From IMG/VR virus record IMGVR_UViG_3300020191_000009, positions 51,373 to 71,372 of that record: a DNA stretch of 20,000 nt. The stretch is one strand, 5' to 3'. This stretch comes from an uncultured virus (IMG/VR IMGVR_UViG_3300020191_000009). Its lineage: Duplodnaviria > Heunggongvirae > Uroviricota > Caudoviricetes. The notes beneath the pieces are model-generated. The model worked only from the letters and a program-made list of their open reading frames with translations, was not told the DNA's origin and did not search any database. Below, piece by piece: positions 4,101 to 19,554 of this stretch (its first letter is position 1; every line of letters starts with the position of its first letter). The position numbers and the translations under genes are program-made.

Positions 4101-7100
4101 ACTAAGCCTTGTGCATCTTCTGGAGGAGAGTCTAGTAAATTTACATCTTCAAGATCTAGTAAATTAGTTACTGTTGATACATAGCTTGCTACCCACTTTT
4201 GACCGTTCCAAGTTAATCCATGTTGGGGAACTAATCCCGCAGAAAAATCAACATCAGCTAAGTCAGCCATATCAGATACGCCTGAAATACTTCCAAGTAT
4301 TAATATTTCAGAAACACTTGCTGCAGGACCTACTATTCCGTAAGAAGTTTCTTCAAGGGTTAGACTTCCGTCAGCCCCAGCATAGTAATATTCTCCAGGA
4401 ACTAAATTAGAGTAAATACTAGAAGTTTTTCCTCCTAGAATTACCACTTCTAGTTGTTCTCCTGTAACTGCTGTCTGTTCTGCAATGCCCATCCAGTCTG
4501 CTGCATTTGATTGTGTAGCTTGCAGTGTTACATCGTATATAAAGAATACCCCTCTATCTGTTGCGGGGAACTGTTGAGTTCCCTGAACATTATCATTATA
4601 CGGAGCACCAACAATAGCACGACCAGAATTTGTTACCGCTACAGAAAATCCAAATAAACTTCCGGAAGGGTTGACAACATAACCCGGGTTTTCAAATGCC
4701 GCATATAGGGGGTACGAAGTAGTGGATGCTCTATTATAGCTATAAAACTTTCCTGAGTCATTGTAACCTAATACGTCATTATTTGCTTCTGAACCTACAA
4801 CGATTTGACTCGATCCCAGCCCTACTGACCTACCGAATTTATCTCCTATCTGATCTGGACTGTTTATTTCTGCAAGCACTGCACCCGAGGTTGTAGAATA
4901 TACCAATACCCTTCCCAAACCTCCATTAAAGTCTGGGGTTCCTGCAACTATGATAGAATCATCCATTTCGAAGGTAAAACCTAGTCCGTTAGATCCTATA
5001 TTAGTATCCTGCAGAGTGTGTATAGTAGACCCAGTATTAATATTACGAACGTATATTCTACCGGTTGATAGCTGTCCTCCAGTATCCTCCCCAGGAGCTC
5101 CAATAGACAAGTAAGTATCTGTTGCGCTCAGTGCAGACCCAAACAGGTCTCCTCCAGTGCCTCCATCATCATTATTATTGTTGAATGTAAAATCAGGAAC
5201 TAAAAGAGGATCCCATCTTGCTTCTGTTTCTCCTTCTGGTATTCCATACTCTGATGACTCTAATAACGAGATAGGATATCTATATACTTTACCTACTAAT
5301 GCATTATTCCCTATATCTACTCGTGGTGCGCCCACTGCTACATAGGTTGAGTTAATAGCTACTGAGGAACCGAACTGCCCTTGGAGAAGAGGCTCAGGGC
5401 TTTCTAGAACTGCTATTAAAGTACCTGAGCTTATTCTATATACGTATACAACGCCAGAATTAACCGCATCTAAATCCTTAAGAGGAGAGCCTACAACTGC
5501 ATAATCATCTTTTATTGCTACTGCAAATCCAAACGCCTGATTAGTTTCTCCTCGCCAAGCCGCGGGCGTTGTGAGGCTTAGGGAGGGTTGTAATGTACGT
5601 ATTAAAGTAGAGTTATCTGTATCATAAATCCTTACTAGGCCGGTTGCGACTCCGCTGTTGGGGCCAATTCTATGATAAGGTGCTGAAACTGCGACACGGC
5701 CGCCTTCTTCTGCAATTGTATGCCCAAAAAGTCCCAAATCTGAGCTAGATGGGAAAGAAGATACCAGCTCCCCTGCAGTTATTGTGGGATTTTCAAACTG
5801 ACCAGAACTATTTAGTACTACTAAGCCGCCTTGTAATATTTGCTCCGCTGCAATACCAGTAATACGCTGTCCCTCGGGTAAGTCTTGAGGAGACCATATT
5901 GAGCCATTATATTGCAATATCTGCAAAGCTGAAGGTAAAACACTACTAAGATCTACGTCTGTTAAATCATCTAATACGTCTACGTTACTTGAACCAGTTA
6001 CAGCATTAACAAAAGACTGAGATACCGCGTTCCAAGTTAAAACCTCCCCTGTTTGAATATTTGAAGGTATAGGTAAATTTATATCATCTAAATCCGATAA
6101 GCTACTAACACCCCCAGCCGCATCTCCTGCTACCCATTGAGAGCTTTGTGCGTTCCAAACAAGCGCCTGGCCGTCTGAAGCAAATGCAGTAACATCTCCA
6201 AGATCATTTAAATTATTTACTTGGTCAGCAGTATTAGATTCAACGTCCCCTGTTATTAAAATGTCGTTTGCACTTAAAGCTTTACCAAAAATACCTAAAT
6301 TTGTGGGAGAACTGTTAAGAGTACCATCAATATTTAAATAATAATTCTGTCCCGGCAATAGATTAACTTGATTGTGTGCTATACCACCAAACAGGGTTAC
6401 TTGTCCTACATCTCCATCTAAAATATCTTCAAAAGCTACTCCTATCCAAGATGAAGCATTACTAGTTATATTAATATCAAAAGCTGTAAGGTGTCCAGAG
6501 TTAAAGTCACCTGAAATAGTATTCCTAGCAAAAGGAGCACCTACGTATAATTTATCATTACCAATAGCAACACTTGAACCAAAGTACTCAGTTGTACTAT
6601 TCCCATATATATTAGGATTGTCAAAATATGCAATAGGAGTACCGGTATCGGCTTCGAAATAATAAGCCTTACCAGCATTAGTATATACTCCTCCTATGTA
6701 CCCCTGATCTTCTCTTCTTGCACCTACTAGTATTTTGTTATCTTTCATATCGATGGAGTAGCCGAACTCATCTCCCTGCGGAAGAGGATAAGTATCAGGG
6801 TTTTGAATAGTATTTATAAGAGTACAAGCTTCATCGGTTACATCATATATATAAACAAGACCTTCATTAGCACCCGTAAAATCCTGCTCTGGTGCAGATA
6901 TAGCTAATCTTTTAATTGATGGATTTCTATCCCATACTATATCAAACCCATGCGTTGCATCTGAACCTCCACCCGGATTTGGATTTGATATAGTATGTAA
7001 TAAAACGGGAAGAGAGTCACTGCTTACGTCATATATATAGACATATCCCTTTACGCTAGTTGTACCTTCTCTGGACGCAGTAACAGCTAAGTATTTTCTA

Positions 7101-10100
7101 TCTTGAGTAAGAGACACTCTTTGGCCAAAGTAATCCCCTGATATACTACCGACTGTATTAGGATTATCAATACGGTATAAAAACCCATATTGAGGGTCTC
7201 CTACACCTATGTCAGGATCGAAAAAGTATACGCATCCAGCTTCTGAGTATTGGTCACTCATATCTTCTAGTGGTGCGCCGACGGCTAAACGAGCCTCACC
7301 ATTATAATCGCTTATAGCTACGTCAGTGCCAAACTGCGCGTTGTTTGTACCATCAGGATTTTGTATTGATAGCCATAAGTCTCCACTAGGGGATGTTCCT
7401 GTAGCCAAGCGGTAGACATAAGCTGCTCCTTGATTATACCCTGTTAGATCATCAGCAAGAAGAGATCCTACCGCTAGAAGGTTACCGCTAGCGTCTAAAG
7501 AATTACCAAATCGGTCCCCTGTTACAGGATTATTTATATTTTCATTTTTAATATAATACTGTTGAGTACCAAAATTATTAAATACGTATACAACCCCAGA
7601 ACTACTTCCTTCTATCTCGTCCTCATATTGAGCACCAGCAATAATATAATCTCCTGATGCAACAACTGCACTAGTAAATTGATCACTGGTAGCCGTACCA
7701 AATATAGTAGGGTTTTCTACATTCCAAGCAGGTAAAAAGGGCTCTTGACCTGTCTTTTTAACTTTTCCAGGAGGGGTAATAGAAACTATATCTCCATCAC
7801 TAATATCTCCATTTGCTATGAAGTTTTCTATACCACCCGAGTGCCCTGCTCTAGGGTACCACTTCTGGGTAGTAGCATCATAAGTAAGTACTTCCTTTTC
7901 TTTTGCTGGGTTTGCAATTACCTCTACATCTAGCAAACTATTAAGAGTTGCAGCAGTAGGTGCTGTTGAGCCAGGAGACCAATTAACTCCGTCCCAGGCT
8001 AAAAATTCTCCGAAACTAGGCTCACTTGCAGTGCCGGGCGTAGTATCTACGTCTGAAAGAGATCCTATACTAATAGTGTCTAAGGCTGGAGAGCCTGGCT
8101 CCCATACGCCTTCAATACCGTTCCAAATTAAAGTTTCTCCTGGAACAGGTGCATAAAGTCCCGCAGTTCTAACATCATCCATGTTATCTAACTGCGTTAC
8201 GGTAATATTAGTAATTTGAACAGGTGTCCAGCCAACGCCCGCTTGATAAGCAATAACATTATCTTGTACAGGCGGCTGAGAAGCTAAATCTACATCGATT
8301 AAGTCCCCAAGCGCAGATACTCTAGAAACTTGACCTGGCTCCCACAGCTCGCTGTTGGCATTATAAACTAATACATCATTATTAACCGCAGATACTGTGG
8401 AAAGATCTATATCATTTAAATCGTTTATTGTTGCTGGGATCGGTATAACACTTGCCTGCCACTCATCAAATTGCAAACTGTAAACTAAGGCGGCATTATC
8501 AACAACCCCGGAAGTATCAACATCTGATAGACTACTTAGAGATAGAGTTCCAGCTTCAATATATGTTGCAAGACCCCATGAAGATCCACTGTATTTAAGA
8601 CCTTGGCCTGCTTGGACTCCCCCAACACTTGTATCTGTTAAGCCACCAAAAGTAGTGATATTACTATATCCTATATTTTTAGGGGCCCACCTATTATTAG
8701 CACTATCCCATACTAAGCCTTGATTGTTAGAGGGAGGAACAGTTACAGTATCTACATCACGGATATCATTTATATAAGTTACTCCGGTTTCAGCAGATAC
8801 TACATTTCCTGTAATAAGCAACTCATCAGCAGCAAGAGCTTTTCCTAACACACCGTAATCTGTCTCAGTCTCAGTTATAAAGCCTCTACCGTCTATATAA
8901 TAGTTTTTATTAATAGTCAGACCGGATACAAACTTATTTACGGCACCTACAGTTGTTACAGTTACTTGTTGAGTAGCTTCTACCGATTGTTCTGATATTC
9001 CTACCCAATCACCAGCATTACTTTCTATGAACGAATCACTAGCAAAAGTTGCAATTTTACCTGTACCTGCAACGGTTAGTCTAGGCGAACCAATAATAAG
9101 ATAGTCGTTCGTAAGAGCTAGACCAAATCCCCAATTTATATTTGTTGCTCCTTCATCTGATAAAAATTCATTTCTAAAAGCTCCCGAGGCGGCCTCGAAC
9201 AAATAAACACTCCCTACATTCTCTCCACTGGCAGAAGCAAGTATATACTCAGTTGTTACAGCAACGCTACTACCAAAATTATCGCCTGTGGGTACGTCTG
9301 CGTTTCTATTAGGGTTGTTAAGAGTATAGTTAAAATCGCCATTATTTAAATTGTATATATACAGTTTTCCGCTGCCCGTATCAGCAGTAGGAGCACCAAC
9401 CACCATACGTCCGTCAGAAGAAATTGCAATAGAGCTACCGAAGTCTCCTGCACCGCCAGGGTTAGAAATAGTATAGATAGAGCTTAAAGTAGCTGCCTCA
9501 TAGACATATACTTTTTCCTCGCTAGGGCTTCCAATAGCTAAATCGCCTGAAGTAGATATTGATATAGCACTACCAAACCCTGTTATGCTGGGAGAGGGAT
9601 TTTCTACAAAGCCTAACTGATTTCCAGTTGCAGTGTTAAATACGTACACTGTGCCAGAGTTAGTATCTGACAAGGATTGAGGCTCTTCATTAATTGCAGT
9701 AACCGCTACATAAGTATTTGTATTCTGTACTCTAAAGCCAAATTGGTCGTCTAACGTTGATGTTGCTGCATTTGGGTTGTCGATAGTATGTTCTAGTATG
9801 AACCCTGGTAAACTATATACATATATTCGGCCTGCATTAGAGTCGTAGCCTGGAGCCCCAATAGTAAAAAACTGGCTTGAAATTGATACCGATTCTCCAA
9901 ATTTATCATTGGCAGTTGCATTGGGGTTGTTTATAGTTTGTACAAGGGTGTTAGTACTTGTAGAGAATATTTCTACCTTACCCCCAACAGTTAAGTACTC
10001 ATACCCTGGAGCTCCCACAATATAATAGTCATCAGATACAAATACACTTTTACCATAGTAATCAGAACTTACTGAAGGGCTACCTGAAGCTTGAAAGATG

Positions 10101-13100
10101 CTGGATACACTACTTTCTATTTCTGCTATTTTTTCGACTTCGCCGTCTGATCTTAAAGCTAGTAGGTCACCTGCTGAAAGGTTTTCAGCGGCTATATAGT
10201 TGGCTACACCTGAGCGAGTTGCAGGTCTCCACTCCCCTGTAGACGCGTTATACTCTAATGTGTTTCTGTTTTGTGGAGGCACTGCCTGAAAATCTACATC
10301 GGTTAAAACATCCAAACCTATAGAAATTACTGCACCTTCTACACTTCTAGTTACCCATGAGTTTGTATCGGGATCCCAAGAAATAAAATCCGAATTGTAG
10401 GGTTCAGTTATTGAAACATCGTCTAAATCTTCTAATCTAAGTCCTATTCCTTCTATGCTGCCCGTAACTACAGTATCTATAGTAGTTCCCGTCCATTTTA
10501 AAAACTTAGAAGAAGGTGTATTTCCCAGATTTTGAAAACCGTTCTCGTTTAGCTGGTTTAATAGAAAAATAGATCTTTCGTTTAGGTCTTCTAAAGCCCT
10601 GGGTATGGGCGCAGGGCTCCAGCTTGCGCCGTTCCATACAAGAGCATCAGACGGTTCTGGCAAACCTGCGACATCAGCTAAATCATATATGCTGTCTGGG
10701 AAGGACGCAGAGCTATAGAATCCTGTGTTACTGTCGTATACTAAAGCAGATCCATCAAAGGGCACACCAGTAACGTCTGCAAGGTTGTTCATGGTATAGT
10801 CACTTGCTCTCATGACCTCGCCTATAGGAGTACTGATAAAGGCGGAAGAAGGGGCGTGCCACGTAAGAATATTGTTCGATGCCTGATTCGCTATATTGTA
10901 ATTAAAATCTGCTAGAGCGCCTGCTCCAAAACTGGGATCTATATTTTCATATCTGTTTGCATCAGCTAGTGTAGTATATCTAAGTATTTGACCTTCTTGA
11001 GGGTTGTCGATACGAACATCATTTAATGCGTCTAATGAATTAGATAGTTGGACGTCACTAGTAGTCCATACTTGGTTTTCATAGTTCCACAGTAAAACCT
11101 CTCCATCTTGCAAAGCAGCTGTTTGAATATCTGTATCTGATAGTTCCGCTAGAGTAAACGTTACTTCTTGCTGCTTGCTAGTAGTACTACCAAAGGTAAT
11201 AAATTGACCGTCTACTAAAGCGTCTACATTTTTATTTACAGTAATGCTAAGTCTGTCTGTAGATATAAATACTACTCTAGGAGCAGACTCTAGTTCCGAG
11301 TGCATTACATAATGATTAACTTCTACATCTGGGCCCACAGGGTCGTTCAGTACAATAGTGTTGCTACCAGTAGTCCCTGCAGGATTGTTATTTACGAATG
11401 ATCCTACATCCTGAGAGATTGCCATAGGAATTACTACTTTAAATATAATAGTAGCGCCTGCAGTTATATCTATATCATAACTTACAGCAAAGCTTAATCT
11501 GTCTCCACTTATTCCACTTACAATAGGAATATTTACATTGCTTCCTATGTAAACAGCGTGACCAGGAACAATTTCTTCAGGCAAAGGAGTATCAAGAAAG
11601 ATCTCACTAGTGGATTCAGTACCTACAACCCCCTGACCAACCTCTACAGTGCCAGTAGTTGCAACTACTTGGTAGACAGGAGGAGTTGCAAAAATAATAG
11701 CCTCAAATTGACTAGTTGATATATTTTCAGAAAGAGTGAGCTCTGTCCTGTCTTCAGATATGCTGTATACAACAGGATACGGCTTAGATAATGAGGGTGT
11801 TTGAAATAAGTCGCCCGGCTTTACGTTTTCAGGAATAACATCCGTTGCAGGTACAGTATCAGTATTAGTAACAGTCTCAGAAACAAACCCAGTTCCAGTT
11901 TCGATAGGTTCTTCTATATCTTCATCAACGTCTAAAGAGGGAATTTCTATTATATCCCCGTCTTCCGTTTCAACGGTTCCGCCAGTACTTCCTCCACCCC
12001 CGTCAGGGTTTGGGCTAGGAGTAGTAGTAGTACCCCCTCCAGTATCGCCACCGCCAGTACTTCCTCCTCCACCACCAGTAATAGTAGCAGGCGCCCACTT
12101 AGTTCCATTCCAAACAAGAGACTGACCGGGTTGGGGCGAAATAGTAGAAGTATCTACATCAAACAAGTCTCCAATGCCGCCAAAATTACTAACAAAGCCT
12201 AAGGTGAACTGGTTTGCATAGGTACCCGTTGTATTAAATATAGGTACCATACCTTGTTGGCCACTCCACTGGCCTCCGGTATCTGCAAGATCTCTAAACC
12301 TGGGCATAGTTGAAACGGCTTGGCCAGGAACCCAATTAGCACCATCATACTGAAGATATGTTCCTGTAGCTAATCCGGTTGTTAAATCTACATCATTTAT
12401 ATCTCCAAGATCGGTTTCTAAATTTACCGGGGATGAAATCCAAGTCTGAGTAGGACCATTGTATGTGAGCAGATCTCCATCATTTACTTGAACAAAATTT
12501 ACATTACTAAGTTCTCCCAGCTCTACAGGCTCATCAATTAAAATTTGATTTATTGATTTAGGAACCCATTCTATGTTAAAATTATCCCAAGCAAGTAAGT
12601 GGCTTTTAGGTATGCCAGCTTCAAAACCGTTATAAGTATCGACATCATCAAGATTACTTATTTGACCAGTTACTGAGGCATAGGCTGGAACCCATTTTTG
12701 TGCATTGGTATTCCATTGAAGAAATTGTTGAGAAAGAGGAGCTGTCGATAGTGTATCCACATCCTCTAGTTCTGTTATGCTTTTGGGTATACCTGCTATG
12801 CTAGGATTTGGCTCGACATCACCGGTAATAAGAACGGTGCTTGCATCTATACTTATGCCAATGGCGCCGCTTCCTACATCACTGGTGCGAAGACTTCCTC
12901 GGTATAACCTTGAATTATCAATATAAATTGGAGTACCAGGAACAAAATTACTCGGCTGTGAACCACCTATCCAACTAGTAACCTTCGTCTGGCCCCCTAA
13001 AATAGTTATAATTCCAGAATTATAGTCACTTGAACCACTAGAAAAACTTTCATCTGCGATACCAAACCAGTCTTTAATATTAGTTACTGGATTGTTCCCA

Positions 13101-15064
13101 TAGGTTATAGCCCGTACTCCCGTAGCTAAATCTAACGGAACTATCATTCTACTTTCTGTTAGCCCACTAGTAGAAGCGGGATGTATGCTTCCATTTATTA
13201 TAAAAGAATCATAAGTATCGTCTGAAGCTGCCTCAGCTCCGTCTATATCTACAATGGGGCGGCCACTCCATTCACTATATGCAATAGTTGTTGTAAAGAG
13301 TTCTATATCATTGGTGTCAGAGTTCTCTCTCCCCCATAAAATAACTGCCGCCCTATCTGTAGTGGATGCTAAGACTGCAGGCCTAATATTTGACATGTTA
13401 TACGGGGTAGGCCCTGAGCCAGTTCCATCTTCGAAGAAATATCTGGAGTACAACGAGTTGTCTGTTACCGTGCTAGTACCTGTGGCGCTAGCAGTAAACC
13501 TTGTGACCTTTCCACGAGGGGGACTAACCGTATTATCTTTATAAGCAACCCAGCAAGAGCTACCGTCTGGAAGTATAGTTACAAAAGGAAAACTTAAGTC
13601 ATCATCAAATGTTCTTGGTGTTCTATAAGTTGCAAATACCCCCGTAAGTAAAGTGACCATCGAGTAGCCTTCACTGATTTGGTCAGTAAATACAGTAACG
13701 TGCCTATTAGTTGTAGGAGCATAAACAGTATGAAGGTCGTAAACTTCCCTGGTTGTAAAAGCAGTGGGCGGCTGAAAAAGTACGTCTAAGCCATCTATTT
13801 CACCTACTCGACCTATACCTACGCCTCCTCCGTTTAAAGAGTTATCCGCATAATGAAAAATTAAATTTCCGCTTTGTGTGTCAGAAGAGACGGAGTGAGA
13901 GCCGATAGCCTCGCCCAAAGAAAAATCGATAGGAAACTGCGACATGCTTACCGCAAACCCTGCAATTGTAACTACACGAGTATATCCAATATTGGTAATA
14001 ATATCTTTCCAGGCAAAAATAACTCGAGTAGTTGCTATATCATACGTAACGGAGAACTCTCCTCCGACGCCGGTAGCAAACTCATGGACAGTGGTGTCCA
14101 TAGTTATCTCTACACCATCATCATCTACTTCTCCAATTACAAACTCGCCCGCACCTGTAGTAGCATTAATAAATGCTACAATAAATTTTTTCTGAGAGCT
14201 TAGCCATAGCGAATGAGTTTGAGCGCCTAACTGATTACCAACAGTTTCTGATTGACCAAACTCAGGAGGTAGATAAGAGATAGGAAAGACTACAGTTCTG
14301 TTATTCTGTCTACCTACTGTAACAGCCTTTCCTGCAGTAATGTTAGTATTGAGTGCGGCTGATACAGTTAGTTTTCCGACAGTAGCTGGTGTTCCAGGAA
14401 TCCACTGTTCTAAAACGTCATCGTATATTAAAGATTCGCCAGCCTTCGGAGTTGTGAGGTAGTTTACATCTGTTAAGTTTTCTATTTCTAGAACAGGACT
14501 TGTACTTACCCAAAAAGACCCGTCAAAAGCGAGTACATCATTTTCAGAGGCACCTGTAACATTTACATTTACAAGATCATTTAAATAAACGGAACTTAAA
14601 GCTGCCGCAGAGGTTGCGGTCCAGAGAGAGGTTTGAGCATCGTATGCAAGAATAGATCCGTCTGAAACAGTAGAAACATCGAAATCTGAAAAGTCTGTGA
14701 TTTCAAGAGCTTTTGGAACGTAGTTACTGCCGTCATGAATGAGTACGGCACCGAGAAATCCAGCACCGCTCGAGTCATTGAGTTCTGAAAAAGAATAAGG
14801 ATTATTAGTGTGATAAGAAGCAACATAAGATTTTACTGCTTCTTCAGTAGGAAGTATTACTGACCCGTCTATAGAATTCAGAGTCGGGTCATTTGTGAAC
14901 GCAAGAATCTGTAGCACACCGTCTGAGAGGGTACTAAAATTCAGTTGTCCAAATTGGGCGTCATCTCCACTTTCGTACTTAGTTGTATTTAAGTAAGTGA
15001 AGTTTCCGTCTAGCTCTGTAAAAGTAAGTTCTGTGCCTTTTACAAGTCGTAGTACTAAAGCCAT
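1121..15064 (-). CDS. Giant (4647 aa) phage fibre/adhesin-like virion protein with about 41 fibre repeats and five beta-propeller modules, several of FG-GAP/integrin-alpha type
   Basis: 13.9-kb uninterrupted ORF. The N-terminus LVLRLVKGTELTFTELDGNFTYL is a motif typical of phage fibre/virion-anchor N-termini. Recurrent LxDLxDV..P..GQxLxW(D/N)G..W repeats; FG-GAP blades such as FGESVSIS..IGAPG, FGSSVAI..VGAP and FGYSID..VGA. C-terminal ATRASFPSLGNLGDLSFAQDTGALYVWEGTVW fibre motif followed by a ~100-aa beta-rich terminal domain. Confidence 0.9.
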   Translation of the reverse strand: MALVLRLVKGTELTFTELDGNFTYLNTTKYESGDDAQFGQLNFSTLSDGVLQILAFTNDPTLNSIDGSVILPTEEAVKSYVASYHTNNPYSFSELNDSSGAGFLGAVLIHDGSNYVPKALEITDFSDFDVSTVSDGSILAYDAQTSLWTATSAAALSSVYLNDLVNVNVTGASENDVLAFDGSFWVSTSPVLEIENLTDVNYLTTPKAGESLIYDDVLEQWIPGTPATVGKLTVSAALNTNITAGKAVTVGRQNNRTVVFPISYLPPEFGQSETVGNQLGAQTHSLWLSSQKKFIVAFINATTGAGEFVIGEVDDDGVEITMDTTVHEFATGVGGEFSVTYDIATTRVIFAWKDIITNIGYTRVVTIAGFAVSMSQFPIDFSLGEAIGSHSVSSDTQSGNLIFHYADNSLNGGGVGIGRVGEIDGLDVLFQPPTAFTTREVYDLHTVYAPTTNRHVTVFTDQISEGYSMVTLLTGVFATYRTPRTFDDDLSFPFVTILPDGSSCWVAYKDNTVSPPRGKVTRFTASATGTSTVTDNSLYSRYFFEDGTGSGPTPYNMSNIRPAVLASTTDRAAVILWGRENSDTNDIELFTTTIAYSEWSGRPIVDIDGAEAASDDTYDSFIINGSIHPASTSGLTESRMIVPLDLATGVRAITYGNNPVTNIKDWFGIADESFSSGSSDYNSGIITILGGQTKVTSWIGGSQPSNFVPGTPIYIDNSRLYRGSLRTSDVGSGAIGISIDASTVLITGDVEPNPSIAGIPKSITELEDVDTLSTAPLSQQFLQWNTNAQKWVPAYASVTGQISNLDDVDTYNGFEAGIPKSHLLAWDNFNIEWVPKSINQILIDEPVELGELSNVNFVQVNDGDLLTYNGPTQTWISSPVNLETDLGDINDVDLTTGLATGTYLQYDGANWVPGQAVSTMPRFRDLADTGGQWSGQQGMVPIFNTTGTYANQFTLGFVSNFGGIGDLFDVDTSTISPQPGQSLVWNGTKWAPATITGGGGGSTGGGDTGGGTTTTPSPNPDGGGGSTGGTVETEDGDIIEIPSLDVDEDIEEPIETGTGFVSETVTNTDTVPATDVIPENVKPGDLFQTPSLSKPYPVVYSISEDRTELTLSENISTSQFEAIIFATPPVYQVVATTGTVEVGQGVVGTESTSEIFLDTPLPEEIVPGHAVYIGSNVNIPIVSGISGDRLSFAVSYDIDITAGATIIFKVVIPMAISQDVGSFVNNNPAGTTGSNTIVLNDPVGPDVEVNHYVMHSELESAPRVVFISTDRLSITVNKNVDALVDGQFITFGSTTSKQQEVTFTLAELSDTDIQTAALQDGEVLLWNYENQVWTTSDVQLSNSLDALNDVRIDNPQEGQILRYTTLADANRYENIDPSFGAGALADFNYNIANQASNNILTWHAPSSAFISTPIGEVMRASDYTMNNLADVTGVPFDGSALVYDSNTGFYSSASFPDSIYDLADVAGLPEPSDALVWNGASWSPAPIPRALEDLNERSIFLLNQLNENGFQNLGNTPSSKFLKWTGTTIDTVVTGSIEGIGLRLEDLDDVSITEPYNSDFISWDPDTNSWVTRSVEGAVISIGLDVLTDVDFQAVPPQNRNTLEYNASTGEWRPATRSGVANYIAAENLSAGDLLALRSDGEVEKIAEIESSVSSIFQASGSPSVSSDYYGKSVFVSDDYYIVGAPGYEYLTVGGKVEIFSTSTNTLVQTINNPNATANDKFGESVSISSQFFTIGAPGYDSNAGRIYVYSLPGFILEHTIDNPNAATSTLDDQFGFRVQNTNTYVAVTAINEEPQSLSDTNSGTVYVFNTATGNQLGFVENPSPSITGFGSAISISTSGDLAIGSPSEEKVYVYEAATLSSIYTISNPGGAGDFGSSIAISSDGRMVVGAPTADTGSGKLYIYNLNNGDFNYTLNNPNRNADVPTGDNFGSSVAVTTEYILASASGENVGSVYLFEAASGAFRNEFLSDEGATNINWGFGLALTNDYLIIGSPRLTVAGTGKIATFASDSFIESNAGDWVGISEQSVEATQQVTVTTVGAVNKFVSGLTINKNYYIDGRGFITETETDYGVLGKALAADELLITGNVVSAETGVTYINDIRDVDTVTVPPSNNQGLVWDSANNRWAPKNIGYSNITTFGGLTDTSVGGVQAGQGLKYSGSSWGLATYIEAGTLSLSSLSDVDTSGVVDNAALVYSLQFDEWQASVIPIPATINDLNDIDLSTVSAVNNDVLVYNANSELWEPGQVSRVSALGDLIDVDLASQPPVQDNVIAYQAGVGWTPVQITNITVTQLDNMDDVRTAGLYAPVPGETLIWNGIEGVWEPGSPALDTISIGSLSDVDTTPGTASEPSFGEFLAWDGVNWSPGSTAPTAATLNSLLDVEVIANPAKEKEVLTYDATTQKWYPRAGHSGGIENFIANGDISDGDIVSITPPGKVKKTGQEPFLPAWNVENPTIFGTATSDQFTSAVVASGDYIIAGAQYEDEIEGSSSGVVYVFNNFGTQQYYIKNENINNPVTGDRFGNSLDASGNLLAVGSLLADDLTGYNQGAAYVYRLATGTSPSGDLWLSIQNPDGTNNAQFGTDVAISDYNGEARLAVGAPLEDMSDQYSEAGCVYFFDPDIGVGDPQYGFLYRIDNPNTVGSISGDYFGQRVSLTQDRKYLAVTASREGTTSVKGYVYIYDVSSDSLPVLLHTISNPNPGGGSDATHGFDIVWDRNPSIKRLAISAPEQDFTGANEGLVYIYDVTDEACTLINTIQNPDTYPLPQGDEFGYSIDMKDNKILVGARREDQGYIGGVYTNAGKAYYFEADTGTPIAYFDNPNIYGNSTTEYFGSSVAIGNDKLYVGAPFARNTISGDFNSGHLTAFDINITSNASSWIGVAFEDILDGDVGQVTLFGGIAHNQVNLLPGQNYYLNIDGTLNSSPTNLGIFGKALSANDILITGDVESNTADQVNNLNDLGDVTAFASDGQALVWNAQSSQWVAGDAAGGVSSLSDLDDINLPIPSNIQTGEVLTWNAVSQSFVNAVTGSSNVDVLDDLTDVDLSSVLPSALQILQYNGSIWSPQDLPEGQRITGIAAEQILQGGLVVLNSSGQFENPTITAGELVSSFPSSSDLGLFGHTIAEEGGRVAVSAPYHRIGPNSGVATGLVRIYDTDNSTLIRTLQPSLSLTTPAAWRGETNQAFGFAVAIKDDYAVVGSPLKDLDAVNSGVVYVYRISSGTLIAVLESPEPLLQGQFGSSVAINSTYVAVGAPRVDIGNNALVGKVYRYPISLLESSEYGIPEGETEARWDPLLVPDFTFNNNNDDGGTGGDLFGSALSATDTYLSIGAPGEDTGGQLSTGRIYVRNINTGSTIHTLQDTNIGSNGLGFTFEMDDSIIVAGTPDFNGGLGRVLVYSTTSGAVLAEINSPDQIGDKFGRSVGLGSSQIVVGSEANNDVLGYNDSGKFYSYNRASTTSYPLYAAFENPGYVVNPSGSLFGFSVAVTNSGRAIVGAPYNDNVQGTQQFPATDRGVFFIYDVTLQATQSNAADWMGIAEQTAVTGEQLEVVILGGKTSSIYSNLVPGEYYYAGADGSLTLEETSYGIVGPAASVSEILILGSISGVSDMADLADVDFSAGLVPQHGLTWNGQKWVASYVSTVTNLLDLEDVNLLDSPPEDAQGLVYDNNTSKWVPANIGYSNVAQFSDLNNVDVSNATVGQSIEWNGVNWIPTTFSSVNSINDLTDVNTTTLKVDYDILTWSESADEWIIDKRNFGNFLNLEAYAPTQPIQAGDPVYITDDGKVAAIKGTETVLGTESLVNTLYPPVSNSNFGTNLAVSKDIIVVGNPYFTSGNILSTGRAYIYNATSGQLLYTLEPPTDYSLQSFGWGVATNGSEVAITAKESPSNNDYGRIYLYDAYTGALLRQIVNPEDSVSTNGPFAQHNSVVMTSSYLIVGNSNWRDATLGTTPGKAYVFNIFTGTQEYSFNNPNPSNGADFGRYINIDESESIISITDTGTGSSLTHIYELSDYSFRTTIDHSLVGVVADKFALNTNYLITGSNQHGYLSVWSTVSGANLYSKPIISSSGKDIVCNDKQVAVITGSSDGVKYYDIASGLELANFSVGSSFQSGAMYKTKLIHKSNLGEVLNYNLSGIKTNTRAADWVGINESLTYDGDIAKINTGSGVTSSVTNLVTGLNYYVSIDGSLFPGPTGFGKIGRAIDSTTILISSNTSNIDLDEESTAALIAGINDLTDVDIFTSFPADNNFLQYDSSSALWVPGTAAITLLNDVTISNLQDKNLLVYSTDTSSWENSSISTSELSDVDYTTPIESGQTLVWDGNTSSFKPGVTDRSITSLNDVDDQAPSVGQILIWDDISTQWVAQDNVSTLEGLTDVDISGVSNNQFLQYNNVTSLWEPGDVATSIAELTDVNVSGGITDGQYLVYNLNTSVWLPQDLPEFAAAIVDLTDVNADSPTQGQGLIFDDQTNKFELAIVGTSNVDTLDDLSNVSVPAPNDGDVLKYNSNSSAWEATPTPSPAVIYATRASFPSLGNLGDLSFAQDTGALYVWEGTVWYNLKRTNAFYLVRAGNFTGPLEGQQVFQPQQAITLHEIRAQVDQPSGETLIFAVMKNSVEVQQFVMPSAQGIVEAAFTSGVTVGLVDEITLDIISGPGTNLSVKFIYS
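1575..14791 (-). repeat. About 41 degenerate 30-40-aa protein repeats (LxDLxDVd...P..gqxLx[WY]dg..W) in blocks of 4/6/8/8/3/4/8 separated by globular modules
   Basis: Counted by eye in the translation, e.g. IENLTDVNYLTTPKAGESLIYDDVLEQW, LEDLDDVSITEPYNSDFISWDPDTNSW, LDDLSNVSVPAPNDGDVLKYNSNSSAW. Diverged at the DNA level. Confidence 0.85.
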
Positions 15065-15067
15065 TCT

Positions 15068-15358
15068 CTATCCAATAGTTACTAGTGTTGCTGCGATTCC
15101 TGAGGTGATCAAGCCGGTGACGGCGATCCATAGCAGTCTAGTAATGCTTTGCAGAATATGGCCGTGGTTATCGATATCTCTAAGTGCGACCGTTTGCATA
15201 ATTTCAATATCTGTAACTCTCGATTCAATTTTGTCTCTTGCGTCATCTAAGTCTGAAATTTGCTCTTCTACTCTTGCTAGTGCTACTACTAGTTCTGTTA
15301 ATTTGTCAATTTTGTTCTCTATTCGATCTATGCGATTATTCTGTTGCTCCAGCTCCAT
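15068..15358 (-). CDS. Coiled-coil protein with one C-terminal TM helix (XhlA-like/holin-like phage membrane protein, 96 aa)
   Basis: Heptad-rich N-terminus (RIDRIENKIDKLTELVVALARVEEQI) and hydrophobic C-terminus (LLWIAVTGLITSGIAATLVTIG). Overlaps the end of terS by 23 nt and stops 3 nt before the giant gene. Confidence 0.7.
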   Translation of the reverse strand: MELEQQNNRIDRIENKIDKLTELVVALARVEEQISDLDDARDKIESRVTDIEIMQTVALRDIDNHGHILQSITRLLWIAVTGLITSGIAATLVTIG

Positions 15359-15809
15359 TTAATAATTTTTCCATCAACTTACCGTAGTTGCCTTGCCCAA
15401 AAGGAATACCTTCATTAATCTGTACATTCGTTTGACTACGAATAGTGGCTGCATTGGACGCCTTTTCAGCTTCTGCCAACGCTTTAATTTCGTCCATTCT
15501 CATTTTATGGGCCATGACCATCAGATCCGCTAGATCCTTTGATGTATACATACCGCTCTCTTGAGCCTCTTCTAGCTTTGATGCTATCATTTCGTCAAGA
15601 ACAGCTGCAATATTATTTTTATTCCTGTACCCCATATCTAAATACACAGTGTCTACATAACGCTTTACTTCACGCGTATTTAAAATTTCTACTACCCTAT
15701 GTTCTGGCACAGACATGTATTCGCAAACTGCCTTTATGTTGCCGTATTGGAGATAGCAATTAGCTACTTCTACTCCTTCGGGAGATATTATAGAAACTTC
15801 TTTTGACAT
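15336..15809 (-). CDS. terS: Terminase small subunit, T5-like (157 aa from ATG 15809)
   Basis: Motifs SPEGxxVxxxYLQxG, GYRN, VLDExIxxKLEExxExG, AHKMxMxE and QTNxQ match my recollection of T5-family TerS. The TTG start at 15845 in the ORF track is the -35 box of the promoter, so ATG 15809 is the likely start. Confidence 0.8.
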   Translation of the reverse strand: MSKEVSIISPEGVEVANCYLQYGNIKAVCEYMSVPEHRVVEILNTREVKRYVDTVYLDMGYRNKNNIAAVLDEMIASKLEEAQESGMYTSKDLADLMVMAHKMRMDEIKALAEAEKASNAATIRSQTNVQINEGIPFGQGNYGKLMEKLLNGAGATE

Positions 15810-15816
15810 GCTATAA

Positions 15817-15845
15817 ATTATACATTCGAGCAGATCGAATGTCAA
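15817..15845 (-). promoter_or_regulatory. Perfect sigma70 promoter TTGACA-17-TATAAT driving terS and the fibre operon, overlapped by an 8-bp inverted repeat
   Basis: Minus strand reads TTGACA ttcgatctgctcgaatg TATAAT ttatagc ATG, with an A/T tract upstream. Inverted repeat ACATTCGA-N5-TCGAATGT at 15822-15842. Confidence 0.9.
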
Positions 15846-15994: not shown

Positions 15995-16025
15995 ACAAAG
16001 TTTTACGTAAAGATGGGGCCGCGCG

Positions 16026-16041
16026 CGTCAAAATTTTGACG
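16026..16041. promoter_or_regulatory. Perfect 16-bp palindrome CGTCAAAATTTTGACG (copy 1 of CGTCAA-N4-TTGACG), putative protein-binding site
   Basis: Exact palindrome; a second copy with the same arms is at 16145-16160. Confidence 0.65.
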
Positions 16042-16075
16042 GTCTCTTAACCGCCCCCTCCTGGGCAGGCGCGCG

Positions 16076-16088
16076 TAACCTATTGATT
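16076..16088 (-). promoter_or_regulatory. IHF-binding consensus (AATCAATAGGTTA = WATCAANNNNTTR)
   Basis: Exact match to the IHF core consensus on the minus strand, with A/T-rich DNA on its 5' side; lies about 46-58 bp upstream of the predicted sigma54 start. Confidence 0.6.
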
Positions 16089-16106
16089 TATAAGGGAAAA
16101 ATAAAG

Positions 16107-16123
16107 TTGGCACGATTCCTGCT
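16107..16123 (+). promoter_or_regulatory. Sigma54 (RpoN) -24/-12 promoter element TTGGCACGATTCCTGCT
   Basis: Matches YTGGCACGRNNNTTGCW with one mismatch (C for T) and exact GG-N10-GC spacing; points toward the pre-early cassette. Confidence 0.65.
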
Positions 16124-16143
16124 TAAGAGCTAGGGCACGCCCC

Positions 16144-16161
16144 GCGTCAAACTATTGACGC
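16144..16161. promoter_or_regulatory. Inverted repeat GCGTCAA-ACTA-TTGACGC (copy 2 of CGTCAA-N4-TTGACG)
   Basis: Same arms and 4-nt spacer length as 16026-16041, 119 bp away; followed by the palindrome TATAAGCTTATA at 16171-16182. Confidence 0.65.
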
Positions 16162-16189
16162 ACATTTGGTTATAAGCTTATAGCACATC

Positions 16190-16234
16190 GATATAAAAAA
16201 CCCTGTACATTTGGAATTAGACCCTGTAAAATCC
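16190..16234 (+). promoter_or_regulatory. Pre-early sigma70-type promoter, copy 1 (A-tract, TGTACA-17-TAAAAT)
   Basis: gatataaaaaa cc cTGTACAtttg gaattagacc ctgTAAAATcc; 34/45 identical to 16397-16441, with identity concentrated in the UP, -35 and -10 parts. Confidence 0.75.
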
Positions 16235-16263
16235 ATCACATATAAAAACAAAAGGTATAAAAA

Positions 16264-16374
16264 ATGTTTCACGATTTATTCACTAGAGCGCTCTTAGGAA
16301 TTATTGGCATGGTAATTGCCTTAGCAATTCTGATGCCAATAGCAGGATCGTTCTTGCTAAACCTTATACCATAA
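16264..16374 (+). CDS. Small single-TM membrane peptide (36 aa) MFHDLFTRALLGIIGMVIALAILMPIAGSFLLNLIP
   Basis: Translated by hand (below the ORF-track cut-off); AAGGT SD-like motif, own promoter directly upstream, strongly hydrophobic. Confidence 0.7.
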   Translation: MFHDLFTRALLGIIGMVIALAILMPIAGSFLLNLIP

Positions 16375-16396
16375 TGGAATATCGTTATTCTATCTT

Positions 16397-16441
16397 GATA
16401 TAAAAAATACTGGACATTTGCAGAATACCTCTGTAAAATCC
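16397..16441 (+). promoter_or_regulatory. Pre-early sigma70-type promoter, copy 2 (A-tract, TGGACA-17-TAAAAT)
   Basis: gatataaaaaa ta cTGGACAtttg cagaatacct ctgTAAAATcc, about 40 bp upstream of the A2-like gene, which has a TAAGGA SD. Confidence 0.78.
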
Positions 16442-16482
16442 TACCCATGCAATAAAGCATTAATCACTAAGGAAAAAAAGTT

Positions 16483-16779
16483 ATGGCTACATACACTGAA
16501 AAAATGGTTAAGCGAATGCGCGATCTTGCACCCCTTGACCTAGACAAAGCAAAGGCGCTTGCCGACGAATTCGGTTCCGTGTCTTATCGCTCTATCATCG
16601 CCAAAGCCAAAAGCGAAGGCGTTGACTATATCGCTAAAGCTCCAGCGGCTAAAAGGCCAAAAGGCCCAACTAAACGCGAGCTTGTGAGTGCTATCGAGCG
16701 ATCTCTGGGATTACCCGAGAGTGACCGCGAAAATCTCACCGTTGATGGCTTAAGCCGCGTTTTAGAGCATCTCGCGTGA
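16483..16779 (+). CDS. A2: T5 A2-like pre-early DNA-binding protein (98 aa)
   Basis: Basic helical protein with YTEKMV...LADEFGSVSYRSIIAK...Y.AK...K.ELV.AI...L, the pattern I recall for A2-family proteins; supported by proximity to dmp. Confidence 0.62.
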   Translation: MATYTEKMVKRMRDLAPLDLDKAKALADEFGSVSYRSIIAKAKSEGVDYIAKAPAAKRPKGPTKRELVSAIERSLGLPESDRENLTVDGLSRVLEHLA

Positions 16780-16973
16780 TTGCGGTTTGCTCTTGGATAG
16801 GCACCGCGCTGCTTGGCGCGGCTCCCTTCCTCATTGACATGCCAGCGGGTAAACTCATGGCGATCATTGGACTTGCTCTGTTATGCTTGCAAGCATACGA
16901 GAAAAAATGCTACAATCTGCTTATATTAAACACAATAGGGATTATCGGTTATGCTTCCAATTTTTTTATTTGA
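16776..16973 (+). CDS. Small multi-TM membrane protein (65 aa)
   Basis: GTGA start/stop overlap with the A2-like gene; three hydrophobic segments (WIGTALLGAAPFLI, LMAIIGLALLCLQA, LLILNTIGIIGYA). Confidence 0.75.
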   Translation: MIAVCSWIGTALLGAAPFLIDMPAGKLMAIIGLALLCLQAYEKKCYNLLILNTIGIIGYASNFFI

Positions 16974-17418
16974 TCTCGACGAGACTGTCATCGACTCGAC
17001 CCACCGTCAAGGTGAGACGTTAAGCGACTGGCGCAGAATGAATACACCCGCAAACGTCATGCGCGACTCTACGCTTCCGCTTGCTTCTACAATGATTCAA
17101 GCCATCTCGGAAGGGTTAGACGTTGGCATTTGTACTTCTCGCGTCATGGGTAGCGTTGATCGCGTTTGGCTACGCATGCGCGGAATGCTGCCAGCGTTTA
17201 CGCTTTCGCGTTCAATCGATGACAATCGACCCGCTGGTGAATTCAAGCTCGCCAAAATGTCAGAGCTTGCGATTGCTCGCCGCGTTTCGTTCGACGAAAT
17301 TCGTCGTCGCGTTATCCTTTGGGATGACAACGCAGACGTGCAACAAACTTTAAAAAATGCTGGCTTTCGTGTAATCGATCCGGTAAAATATAACCAAGCA
17401 AAAAAGGTAGCTGCATAA
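16951..17418 (+). CDS. dmp: HAD-family phosphatase, T5 Dmp-like deoxynucleoside-5'-monophosphatase (155 aa)
   Basis: HAD motif I FDLDETVIDSTHR, motif II ICTSR, Lys in EFK, motif IV LWDDN. DSTLPL, ICTSRVM..D..WLR..G and GF..ID...N parallel T5 Dmp as I recall it, without its long acidic C-terminal tail. Confidence 0.78.
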   Translation: MLPIFLFDLDETVIDSTHRQGETLSDWRRMNTPANVMRDSTLPLASTMIQAISEGLDVGICTSRVMGSVDRVWLRMRGMLPAFTLSRSIDDNRPAGEFKLAKMSELAIARRVSFDEIRRRVILWDDNADVQQTLKNAGFRVIDPVKYNQAKKVAA

Positions 17419-18152
17419 TGAGCAAGAAACAATATATAGCGACAATCGATGTTGAAACAACGCAAGATCACAAGGTCGCTGATTTTGCTTGCACTATCAC
17501 AGACCGCAAGGGGCGCATTCACGCTCAATGCGCTGTCATGGTTGACGGCATTTTCACGGATGCAGAAAATCACCCGCTCTTTTTTAATAAGGATGCTGGC
17601 CCTTCTGCGCTATGGTCTCGCAAATCAGCAGACCGACGGTATGCAAAATATCAAAAAATGGTACAGGATGGCTCGCGCATGATTGCAAGCGTGGGCGCGA
17701 TTAACCGCTGGTTAGAGCGGGCGGTCGGAAAATACGACCCAATCTTGACCGCTTACAATCTAGGCTTTGATTCTGGCAAAATGTCAAATACTGGAATAGA
17801 TCACTCTATTTTTTCTCAGCGCTTCTGCCTCTGGCAAGCGGCCTGCGTAAAATGGGCATCCTCTACGGCATATAAAAATTTCATCATGCAAAATCATTAC
17901 TTTAATCCGCCTACTGCTTTCGGCAATATGACTTACCAAACCAACGCCGAGGTTATGGCGCGATTCGTTACGGGTCAAGATTTGCCAGACGAGCCACATA
18001 CAGCGTTAGAGGATATTATCGGTTACGAATTGCCTATATTGAACGCAATCATAAAACGCGGTAAAATGTCCGACATCATAGATTCTTGCGTTGGCTATAA
18101 CTGGCGCGACTATCAAGCAAAAAATCATTTTACTGCAAAAAAGGTTGCATGA
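17418..18152 (+). CDS. DEDDh (DnaQ-like) 3'-5' exonuclease (244 aa)
   Basis: ExoI TIDVETT, ExoII AYNLGFD, ExoIII PHTALEDI; start overlaps the dmp stop (TAATG). Confidence 0.88.
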   Translation: MSKKQYIATIDVETTQDHKVADFACTITDRKGRIHAQCAVMVDGIFTDAENHPLFFNKDAGPSALWSRKSADRRYAKYQKMVQDGSRMIASVGAINRWLERAVGKYDPILTAYNLGFDSGKMSNTGIDHSIFSQRFCLWQAACVKWASSTAYKNFIMQNHYFNPPTAFGNMTYQTNAEVMARFVTGQDLPDEPHTALEDIIGYELPILNAIIKRGKMSDIIDSCVGYNWRDYQAKNHFTAKKVA

Positions 18153-18153
18153 T

Positions 18154-18264
18154 ATGAAAACCAAATTGCTCGCTTTAGCTTTCAAGGCTTATATAATTTA
18201 CTCGCTATGCGCTGATTTTATTCTCGTTTGCGGTATAATCTGGCTTCTTTTGGAGACTGTATAA
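18154..18264 (+). CDS. Small hydrophobic peptide (36 aa) MKTKLLALAFKAYIIYSLCADFILVCGIIWLLLETV
   Basis: Translated by hand; fills the gap between the exonuclease stop (18152) and ppk2 start (18266) with 1-nt spacing on each side; AAGGT upstream. Confidence 0.7.
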   Translation: MKTKLLALAFKAYIIYSLCADFILVCGIIWLLLETV

Positions 18265-18265
18265 T

Positions 18266-18883
18266 ATGAAATTAAAAACAGAACAGGCGCGACTGAATCG
18301 CAATCTCGAAAATCTAGCGCTCGATAGAATCTGCGTGGTGCTCGAAGGTCGCGACACTGCCGGAAAATCCTCGACGATTCGCGAGGTGACGCACTATCTG
18401 AATCCTGCGCTTTATTCTGTGCATCTATCGCGCAAGCCTAGCAAGTCCACCATGAAAAAATGGCTTGCGTATTGGTCGCGTAGAATGCCAGCATATAACC
18501 AGATCGTTTTTTATGATCGATCATGGTATAGCCGCGCAATGGTTCAACGCTTAAACGGTTGGTGCTCAGAAACTCAATATAAGAATTTTCTAGCGAATCA
18601 TAAATCATGGGAAAAATCGCAAGGCGTTCGCATGATTAAATTTTGGCTTTCAATTTCCGAGGATGAACAACGCGCACGAATTGAGCGCAGAAAAAAATCG
18701 CCATTGACCTACTGGAAATTTTCCGAGAATGACGAGAATGCGCTCTCATACTATGACCGCATGACTCTATTAAAAGAGCGCGTGATTGATTCTGATTGGC
18801 ATGTGATCGACTACAACGACAAGCGGCAAGGCATCTATTCCCTTTTGGAAACACTCAATACCACACTTGAAAATTTGGAATAG
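18266..18883 (+). CDS. ppk2: Polyphosphate kinase 2 family protein (205 aa, single domain)
   Basis: Walker A VVLEGRDTAGKSSTI, Walker B FYDRSWYSR, IKFWLSISEDEQRARI, PLTYWKFSEND and WHVIDYNDKR are all PPK2 hallmarks; GGAG SD. Confidence 0.93.
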   Translation: MKLKTEQARLNRNLENLALDRICVVLEGRDTAGKSSTIREVTHYLNPALYSVHLSRKPSKSTMKKWLAYWSRRMPAYNQIVFYDRSWYSRAMVQRLNGWCSETQYKNFLANHKSWEKSQGVRMIKFWLSISEDEQRARIERRKKSPLTYWKFSENDENALSYYDRMTLLKERVIDSDWHVIDYNDKRQGIYSLLETLNTTLENLE

Positions 18884-18891
18884 GTCGCGCA

Positions 18892-18907
18892 TGTTTCACG
18901 TGAAACA
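18892..18907. promoter_or_regulatory. parS: parS centromere-like site TGTTTCACGTGAAACA (ParB/Spo0J loading site)
   Basis: Exact 16/16 match to the canonical chromosomal parS palindrome, intergenic, 8 bp after the ppk2 stop. Confidence 0.88.
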
Positions 18908-18911
18908 CTCT

Positions 18912-18959
18912 CGCCAAAAATTTCTTGAAAAAAGCATTGACTTCTTGAAATTTTTGGCG
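18912..18959. repeat. 13-bp perfect inverted repeat CGCCAAAAATTTC-N22-GAAATTTTTGGCG (hairpin/cruciform or possible terminator of the pre-early operon)
   Basis: Arms at 18912-18924 and 18947-18959; also contains TTCTTGAAA twice. No clean U-tail. Confidence 0.7.
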
Positions 18960-18969
18960 CGGGGGCGCC

Positions 18970-19203
18970 AGTGCGAAAGCGAAGTGCAAATCCGATTGGT
19001 GTTACGTCCTTGCGGGTGCGTGTATGGTGGATCAAAAGGTAGTCTTCGGGGAAAGTTGCGGAAAATTTTGTAGAAAATTTGCTCGCGCCGATTATAGTGG
19101 GAAATCGATGCGATGTCAAGGACTTTTTGCGGGTGTGTTGTAATTAGTTTAAATTTGCGCAGGTCTCGGCTGCGCCGAAGCAAGTGCGAAAATGAAGTGC
19201 AAA
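18970..19203 (+). repeat. 21-bp direct repeat AGTGCGAAA(GC/AT)GAAGTGCAAA at 18970-18990 and 19183-19203
   Basis: 19/21 identical; each copy is itself an AGTGC tandem and has GCGCC shortly upstream. Confidence 0.8.
19091..19119 (-). promoter_or_regulatory. Perfect sigma70 promoter TTGACA-17-TATAAT pointing back toward parS/ppk2
   Basis: Minus strand: TTGACA tcgcatcgatttcccac TATAAT; no credible gene downstream on that strand. Confidence 0.8.
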
Positions 19204-19204
19204 A

Positions 19205-19257
19205 TTTACGTACGTAAAAGTGTAACTTTTATACACTTATATGTACGTAAAAGTGTA
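19205..19257. repeat. Nested cluster: palindrome TTTACGTACGTAAA (19205-19218), direct repeat GTACGTAAAAGTGTA (19210-19224, 19243-19257), inverted AAGTGTA/TACACTT (19218-19238)
   Basis: Read directly from the sequence. Confidence 0.8.
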
Positions 19258-19360
19258 CCATGCAGCAAATCGGACTTAATTTGAGATAACCCCGCTTTAT
19301 CTTACCAAACACCCGCCAAACCCAGGATCGCCGCCGTGTGCACGGAATCCCATTAGGTAT

Positions 19361-19390
19361 ATTATACAGGCTTTAGCGGGGTAATGTCAA
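19361..19390 (-). promoter_or_regulatory. Second leftward consensus promoter TTGACA-18-TATAAT
   Basis: Minus strand: TTGACA ttaccccgctaaagcctg TATAAT; no ORF with SD downstream. Confidence 0.7.
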
Positions 19391-19525
19391 GCCCGTGTAG
19401 GGTTAGGTACAATTTAAAAAAATTTATTTGCGCCGAAATTTGACAAAAAACTTGACCCCGCAATGGTCGAGGGCGGCCCCCGGGAATTAGGTTGCGGTTG
19501 CTTATTGACAAAAAAGAAAAAACAT

Positions 19526-19554
19526 TTGACAACGTAATCAAATGGTAGTATAAT
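19526..19554 (+). promoter_or_regulatory. Strong early sigma70 promoter TTGACA-17-TATAAT with upstream A-tracts
   Basis: TTGACA acgtaatcaaatggtag TATAAT, followed by AAGGAG SD and GTG at 19583. Confidence 0.9.

Follow-up and report, generated by a model that had tools for sequence, protein, structure and literature searches.

The stretch of DNA analyzed here (the window; 20,000 nucleotides) forms the last part of a virus record of 71,372 bases, and a second record of 95,808 bases, 98% complete and with overlapping ends, represents the same phage. Beyond the terminase small-subunit gene lies a plus-strand operon that encodes, in order, an A2/D5-family protein, a 65-aa hydrophobic protein, a Dmp-like phosphatase, a DEDDh nuclease, a 36-aa hydrophobic ORF, and a polyphosphate kinase 2 (PPK2), and is followed by a parS site (Table 1). 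The first three junctions are overlaps (4 nt between the A2-like and 65-aa genes, 23 nt between the latter and dmp, and 1 nt between dmp and the nuclease gene), while the 36-aa ORF is separated by 1 nt from the nuclease gene on one side and by 1 nt from PPK2 on the other. As the original prediction had proposed, the genes share one codon style: GC3 is 0.48 for PPK2, 0.46-0.48 for four operon genes 5' of it, and 0.26-0.34 for 13 replication and structural genes, and the PPK2 codons score a log-likelihood of +0.21 per codon for the operon model. That prediction had also described coupling to an A2-like gene, dmp, and an exonuclease; the coupling and dmp hold, the exonuclease is recognized by motif and fold, the A2 likeness is weak, and two small membrane-type ORFs had been missed.

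Table 1. Genes and sequence elements at the PPK2 locus, by position in the window
Feature	Position	Strand	Basis or remark
Terminase small subunit; final late gene ahead of the module and not part of it	15336..15845	-	phrog_3802, E 2.6e-37; GC3 0.34
Candidate terminal repeat / first-entering module, ~3 kb, edges approximate	16020..18985	.	Contig breaks, depth, end motifs; co-occurring strains also raise depth
T5-like left-end motif TAACCGCCCC	16048..16057	+	T5 nt 35 with 1 mismatch; 1 exact copy in the 71-kb record
Three sigma-54-type -24/-12 motifs (16108+, 16305+, 16338-)	16108..16338	.	Pattern match alone
Likely operon promoter, TGGACA-17-TAAAAT at 16411-16439	16397..16455	+	Consensus match; putative
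A2/D5-family DNA-binding protein, 98 aa	16483..16779	+	Weak A2 likeness
Hydrophobic protein, 65 aa, at the position of T5.005	16776..16973	+	Conserved in relatives; viral clusters only
Dmp-like HAD phosphatase (dNMP 5'-phosphatase)	16951..17418	+	T5 Dmp likeness; phrog_415
DEDDh (DnaQ-fold) nuclease, 244 aa	17418..18152	+	Motif and fold; swapped or missing in some relatives
Hydrophobic ORF, 36 aa	18154..18264	+	Conserved in many relatives
Polyphosphate kinase 2, single domain, class-I-like, serine signature	18266..18883	+	205 aa; profile, alignment, model
Perfect palindromic parS	18892..18907	.	8 nt beyond the PPK2 stop
Single copy of a 12-mer (nine copies near the right edge of the T5 terminal repeat)	18984..18995	+	Weak; 9/85 loci
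Control region: two perfect leftward sigma-70 promoters (19119, 19390) and a rightward early promoter (19526-19554)	19091..19554	.	Same layout in relatives

The segment that carries the likely operon promoter is the second copy of a 59-nt repeat, the first copy of which lies at 16190-16248. Past the operon, the two perfect sigma-70 promoters of the control region (19091-19119 and 19361-19390, minus strand) point across a gene-free interval toward parS and the PPK2 3' end, an arrangement also seen in relatives, and could turn the operon off through antisense RNA. Elsewhere in the window, a minus-strand ORF of 4647 aa (1121-15064) is rich in short repeats, includes stretches resembling beta-propellers, and probably encodes a giant tail fibre or adhesin.

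Among the genes upstream of PPK2, dmp is the clearest: its product and T5 Dmp, which both belong to phrog_415, share 31% identity across 86 aa (E 1.3e-8). The nuclease residues D11, E13, D118, H194, and D199 are invariant in 19/19 family members, none of which (0/19) has a Pfam match, and the top Foldseek matches are all DEDD nucleases (E ~1e-4). A match of the nuclease profile to delta-endotoxin (E 0.19) was disregarded as chance. The nuclease gene is also variable: contigs of co-occurring strains skip or replace it while keeping its flanks, and in other relatives an unrelated gene occupies its position. The A2-like protein resembles T5 A2 weakly in direct comparison (pairwise E 0.14; profile E 0.0027, probability 11%), 10 of 21 members of its family match phrog_1725, the family of T5 A2, and paralogues occur in the early region. 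For the 65-aa hydrophobic protein, searches gave neither a family match nor sequence likeness to T5.005.

The PPK2 gene, which has a GGAG 8 nt 5' of its ATG, is a 205-codon reading frame without internal stop. Its product matches Pfam PPK2 (PF03976) with an E value of 5.7e-42 and 144.3 bits against a cut-off of 22.3, as one domain over residues 6-202, and all 18 solved sequences that match it at E up to 0.001 are polyphosphate kinases; the intact single-domain PPK2 of the original prediction is confirmed as a genuine member of the family. An AlphaFold model from a 35-sequence alignment (pLDDT 86, pTM 0.84) has the predicted thymidylate-kinase-like fold with lid, and its best superposition among solved PPK2s is on the polyphosphate (polyP)-bound structure 5LL0 (TM 0.85). 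Residues were equated by aligning the phage protein to solved sequences, with roles taken from the available parts of PMC4748334 and PMC8776046. By this alignment, D62, K66, D117, R118, R178, and D192 of the solved class I enzyme correspond to phage D30, K34, D84, R85, R142, and D156. Across 65 distinct phage PPK2 domains, D30, K34, D84, R85, R90, R142, K151, and D156 are invariant and R138 is kept in 63, so that the Walker A Asp and Lys, the Walker B DRS, and the lid arginines with their Asp are all present.

The phage enzymes differ from characterized classes in two respects. First, the residue after Walker B, which is N in class I, G in class II, and E in class III (PMC8776046, text available in part), is S in 65/65 phage domains; the same S occurs in 51 of 69 cellular sequences from a species-genome search whose pattern was biased to DRSWYS. 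Second, the proximal polyP ligands K34, R85, R142, K151, and K186 are retained, while the basic residues of the distal polyP channel are eroded: the R72 position is basic in none of the 65 domains, the R232 position is I in 46/65, and the K184 position is T in 49/65. The protein is also short (205 aa vs 263-312 aa for single-domain solved PPK2 chains), although the net charge of the domain is similar to that of class I (median +8 vs +10), and N97 and W99, in the neighborhood of the base pocket, are phage specific. The best NCBIfam model is TIGR03707, with 159.7 bits, which is below its equivalog cut-off of 301.8; TIGR03709 (class III) scores 98 bits. Of the diagnostic columns, 12 side with the class-I-like enzymes of N, S, or T signature and 2 with the G-signature class II, and by sequence we place the phage PPK2 with class I rather than class II, as class-I-like.

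A phylogeny against host and phage homologues had been suggested together with the profile search. In a FastTree analysis of 142 domains, selected from 279 by identity thinning and aligned over 224 columns (class I and class II only; support labels shifted on the re-rooting path), one clade (support 0.99) unites the phage PPK2s with three unannotated representatives, and no true cellular member falls within it among the 142 sequences. This clade, together with the enzymes of N, S, or T signature, is set off from G-signature class II by a long branch, and the tree supports no one position for it within class I. In species genomes, the three best PPK2 matches (68, 66, and 45%) are contigs of 2.3-5.7 kb with the same phage operon, and the other 77 among the matches listed are 34-47% identical, many of them from SAR86, Porticoccaceae, Halieaceae, Marinimicrobia, and Flavobacteriales. 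Of the members with a record in the nearest Atlas clusters, 91-100% are viral. Purifying selection is evident from dN/dS (median 0.142, maximum 0.287; 102 of 595 pairs with 0.05<dS<1.5, pairs that are not independent). A recent host fragment or a chimeric assembly, which the original prediction had named as grounds for abandoning it, was rejected, since independent contigs at 59-100% identity carry the same operon and the true cellular matches listed reach 47% at most. A pseudogene was likewise rejected because the catalytic residues are invariant and the gene is under purifying selection. The best reading of these data is that PPK2 has long been kept in the phage lineage as an accessory metabolic gene.

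PPK2 is widespread in this lineage, whose members are T5-related, uncultured viruses of coastal and marine waters. A protein search with PPK2 gave 44 viral loci at 59-100% identity, and another, with 2075 candidates, gave 2006 proteins, of which the best 120 are 80-99% identical. We then used dmp as an anchor, which avoids selection for PPK2, and sorted the best 80 of 161 relatives by eye. PPK2 is present in 64 of these 80 loci, 51 times at the operon end and 13 times elsewhere (seven after parS, three further into the early region, and three upstream of the A2-like gene); among the 71 loci that could be assessed it is missing in seven (at least 2.5 kb read), and the other nine of the 80 are too short. 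When the same 80 loci are collapsed into 59 clusters at 95% Dmp identity, 37 have PPK2 at the operon end, six after parS, three in the early region, one upstream, and seven not at all, and five are short. Five PPK2-less records (15-80% complete) gave no PPK2 match anywhere. Anchoring on PPK2 instead (best 80 of 315 loci) gave 52 in the operon, 13 after the control region, three without dmp within 4 kb, and 12 short. In the seven after-parS loci, PPK2 lies 3' of consensus rightward sigma-70 promoters and looks like a first early gene. The gene was found in 5/5 near-complete genomes, which were chosen for having it. Among 50,697 phage records, 15 match PPK2, the best four being huge phages at 38-42%, and 378 match dmp; no record named Escherichia, Salmonella, or Vibrio phage matches PPK2, and the gene is absent from cultured T5-like phages. 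On this distribution, PPK2 appears to be a common, accessory, and early-acting gene that is not fixed to entry.

Several observations point to a terminal repeat around the operon. In two DNA runs, unique flanking contigs break off at 16050 and start again at 18952-18957, and flank depths of 30.4/30.8 and 27.2/27.3 compare with 50-91 and 39-85 for the listed contigs inside; contigs over the strain-specific nuclease gene have 2.3-2.5 times the flank depth. A T5-like end motif is present in 62 of 76 relatives vs one of 67 control windows, while the 12-mer of the T5 right edge (Table 1) is not conserved in the clade. The whole operon thus probably lies within a terminal repeat of ~3 kb. Contigs alone stop short of proof here, because related strains share parts of the module and may partly raise the depth. 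The position claimed for a pre-early operon fits these depths and end motifs, and from position we infer the "pre-early" status itself. Parts of PPK2, as well as late genes, are represented in metatranscriptome contigs, which carry no strand, timing, or gene ranking. Of the genes expected in a first-step-transfer (FST) module of T5 type (the T5 terminal-repeat context is described in the accessible part of bioRxiv 10.1101/866236), dmp is clear and A2 weak; A1 was not found in five near-complete records, by a search without positive control, nor in the best 80 of 161 dmp-anchored loci. A1 is reported in 227/227 Demerecviridae examined (bioRxiv 10.64898/2026.04.02.716235, accessible part), and since it was not found here, two-step DNA transfer cannot be assumed.

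For the phage terminase, identity to its counterparts in Vibrio T5-like phages and My1 is 47-49%, and the PPK2-bearing genome also has RNR, ThyX, PhoH, and MazG-type genes. One genome (G001) carries in its early region an inserted plus-strand block (L210:5103-13365) of seven large ORFs without Pfam match, as well as IscU, Hsp20, two DUF2589 genes, MazG, and PRA-PH-like and stand-alone dATP/dGTP diphosphohydrolase genes; a relative (G005) has IscA and IscU. Phage IscU is 77-82% identical to that of four Cellvibrionales-type genomes and 65% to that of SAR86. The host is probably a gammaproteobacterium, and it is named no closer because IscU is up to 85% identical to that of gammaproteobacteria beyond the Cellvibrionales-type genomes. 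Phage contigs of the PPK2 clade have been binned into Rubripirellula, Poseidoniales, and Saccharibacteria MAGs. In marine gammaproteobacteria, five loci contain PPK2, with no PPK1 detected in 5/5 genomes; in SAR86 the gene after cellular ppk2 is ppx, and in three loci it is a Nudix gene.

For bacteria, polyP is one of the major reserves of phosphate and energy. We put at about even the chances that the phage PPK2 is an accessory polyP-to-NTP kinase acting early in infection. A compact, active class-I-type PPK2 would be made by the phage and, because it is co-transcribed from the candidate terminal repeat with the A2-like, dmp, and nuclease genes, would appear in the first minutes. It would transfer terminal phosphates of host polyP to nucleoside diphosphates (ADP/GDP, possibly dNDPs), converting the phosphate and energy reserve of the host into NTPs as host DNA breaks down and phage synthesis begins. 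This reading is supported by the family's preference for polyP consumption (PMC8776046, available text), and the RNR, ThyX, PhoH, and MazG-type genes count in its favor; the S signature, the eroded distal channel, the existence of polyP-making class I enzymes, the five PPK1-less marine genomes, and the loss of the gene in seven of 71 assessable loci and its displacement in 13 count against it. The original prediction had suggested that the phage may tap polyP at entry for ATP/GTP. Regeneration of ATP/GTP survives as the best reading, but a role tied to entry itself finds no support, because in relatives the gene either follows early sigma-70 promoters or has been lost; PPK2 would aid early infection generally rather than form part of the injection machinery.

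The main rival of this reading, one that the original prediction had not considered and that we think unlikely, is that the enzyme runs in the direction of synthesis and banks phosphate: the nuclease would free dNMPs, Dmp would free phosphate, and PPK2 would convert NTP to polyP, keeping phosphate for later phage DNA synthesis. Co-transcription of PPK2 with the nuclease and dmp genes fits this scheme, as do PhoH in three of five relatives and the absence of PPK1 from all five candidate-type marine genomes, one of which has ppk2 beside ppx. Further, some class I enzymes make polyP, namely those of C. glutamicum and P. aeruginosa PPK2B (PMC8776046, in part), T5 excretes the by-products of Dmp (bioRxiv 10.64898/2026.04.02.716235, accessible part), and viral ppk genes have been read as raising polyP accumulation (PMC13188868, accessible part). 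Against it, synthesis would cost ATP when demand is highest and would run counter to the family preference; relatives that keep PPK2 have the nuclease swapped or missing; and an eroded distal channel seems ill-suited to long-chain synthesis.

It is rather improbable that PPK2 instead serves as a DNA-precursor kinase, a stand-in for the dNMP kinase (Dnk) of cultured T5-like phages that would pass polyP phosphate to dNMP or dNDP. No DNMK family match was found in 5/5 near-complete relatives, and a search that found T5 Dnk in T5 found it in none of four clade records, while Vibrio T5-like phages have Dnk. PPK2 is kin to thymidylate kinase, some PPK2s accept dAMP/dADP (PMC4748334 and PMC8776046, available text), and N97 and W99 lie near the base pocket. 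However, a PPK2-less relative (80% complete) is also without Dnk, the class-I-like columns predict NDP rather than NMP acceptors, and futile cycling of dNMP would follow from co-expression with Dmp.

Improbable, too, is a role in counter-defence or stress silencing, also raised by the original prediction, in which polyP would be drained or NTP pools refilled, so blunting stress responses or nucleotide-depleting defences. The first-entering position, patchy presence, and movement of the gene are typical of host-takeover genes, and MazG-type genes occur in the same genomes, but selection on PPK2 is strongly purifying rather than of the arms-race kind, and our literature search found no such role. 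A PPK2 fold with an altered donor or no net use of polyP (acting on short-chain polyP, as an adenylate-kinase-like enzyme, or in oligophosphorylated nucleotide synthesis) would suit the lost distal charges and shortened protein, and such side activities are known in PPK2s (PMC4748334 and PMC8776046, in part); retention of the five proximal ligands and a net charge like that of class I make it very doubtful. Least credible of all is the proposal that PPK2 supplies CTP for a host ParB loaded at the adjoining parS: although the site is close by, ParB_N was found in none of five near-complete relatives, and one class I enzyme prefers CDP/UDP (PMC8776046, available text), a fixed link between PPK2 and parS was rejected because a parS-type palindrome is kept in 6/7 PPK2-less loci and missing within 2.5 kb in 11/43 PPK2-bearing ones. 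In other lineages PPK2 lies beyond parS, and an enzyme that diffuses freely would not profit from having its gene next to the site.

Taking the polyP-to-NTP reading further, we speculate, and hold it unlikely as a whole, that the FST module has been rebuilt as a phosphate-and-energy takeover unit. The nuclease and Dmp would strip phosphate from host DNA, and a serine-signature, channel-remodelled PPK2 would link host polyP to NTP/dNTP supply, replacing A1-type takeover and Dnk, so that, from its first minute, infection of starved marine cells would draw on polyP for its costs. If a widespread phage clade does tap polyP early, viral lysis would be tied to marine phosphorus cycling via a defined enzyme; in addition, so compact a natural PPK2, whose signature residue is uncharacterised, might be of use in NTP regeneration.

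Compared with class I PPK2 (TIGR03707; 5LL0/4YEG, 3CZQ), to which it is 30-32% identical in structural alignments, the phage enzyme shares the fold, the Walker A motif GRDxxGK, DRSWY, the lid R-x3-R plus Asp, a single domain, and the 12 class-diagnostic columns; it differs in being viral, in its length, in S for N, in its score below the TIGR03707 cut-off, and in its fewer distal-channel charges. With the serine-signature PPK2s of marine bacteria, its nearest cellular relatives by BLAST among the matches listed from the DRSWYS-biased search, it shares DRSWYS, but these proteins are ~280 aa where read and form a separate clade; we found no characterised one in the literature. The PPK2s of three huge phages (635-735 kb) have the N signature and long N-terminal extensions, and fall among class I sequences as a separate acquisition.

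The operon resembles that of the T5 FST region (A2, 005, A1, 003, 002, dmp; AY543070) in having an A2-family gene, a small membrane gene, and dmp in the same transcription order, in adjoining terS, and in a like end motif. The T5 terminal repeat is 10.2 kb vs ~3 kb here; the DEDDh nuclease and PPK2 are added here, and PPK2 is absent from the annotated terminal repeat of T5, in line with what the original prediction had said of its pre-early genes. The operon here reads inward from the candidate left end, whereas the A2-A1-dmp operon of T5 reads outward, though the end motifs are in the T5 orientation, and parS stands in place of the DnaA-box repeats of T5.

Virus-encoded ppk auxiliary metabolic genes are reportedly also the subject, by its title, of a 2025 study by Li et al. 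(Water Res 268:122678), which PMC13188868 cites. In the available part of PMC13188868, ppk1 and ppk2 are described as viral auxiliary metabolic genes, also in active viruses; they are phage-borne as here, but come from sediments and sludge and are read as genes for polyP accumulation. The main text of PMC10987575 does not contain "ppk", and our literature search, which covered mainly open-access main texts, found no PPK2 in a T5-like or terminal-repeat phage. Phage ppk2 is already known; its T5-like setting, at the end of an operon and probably within a terminal repeat, appears to be new.
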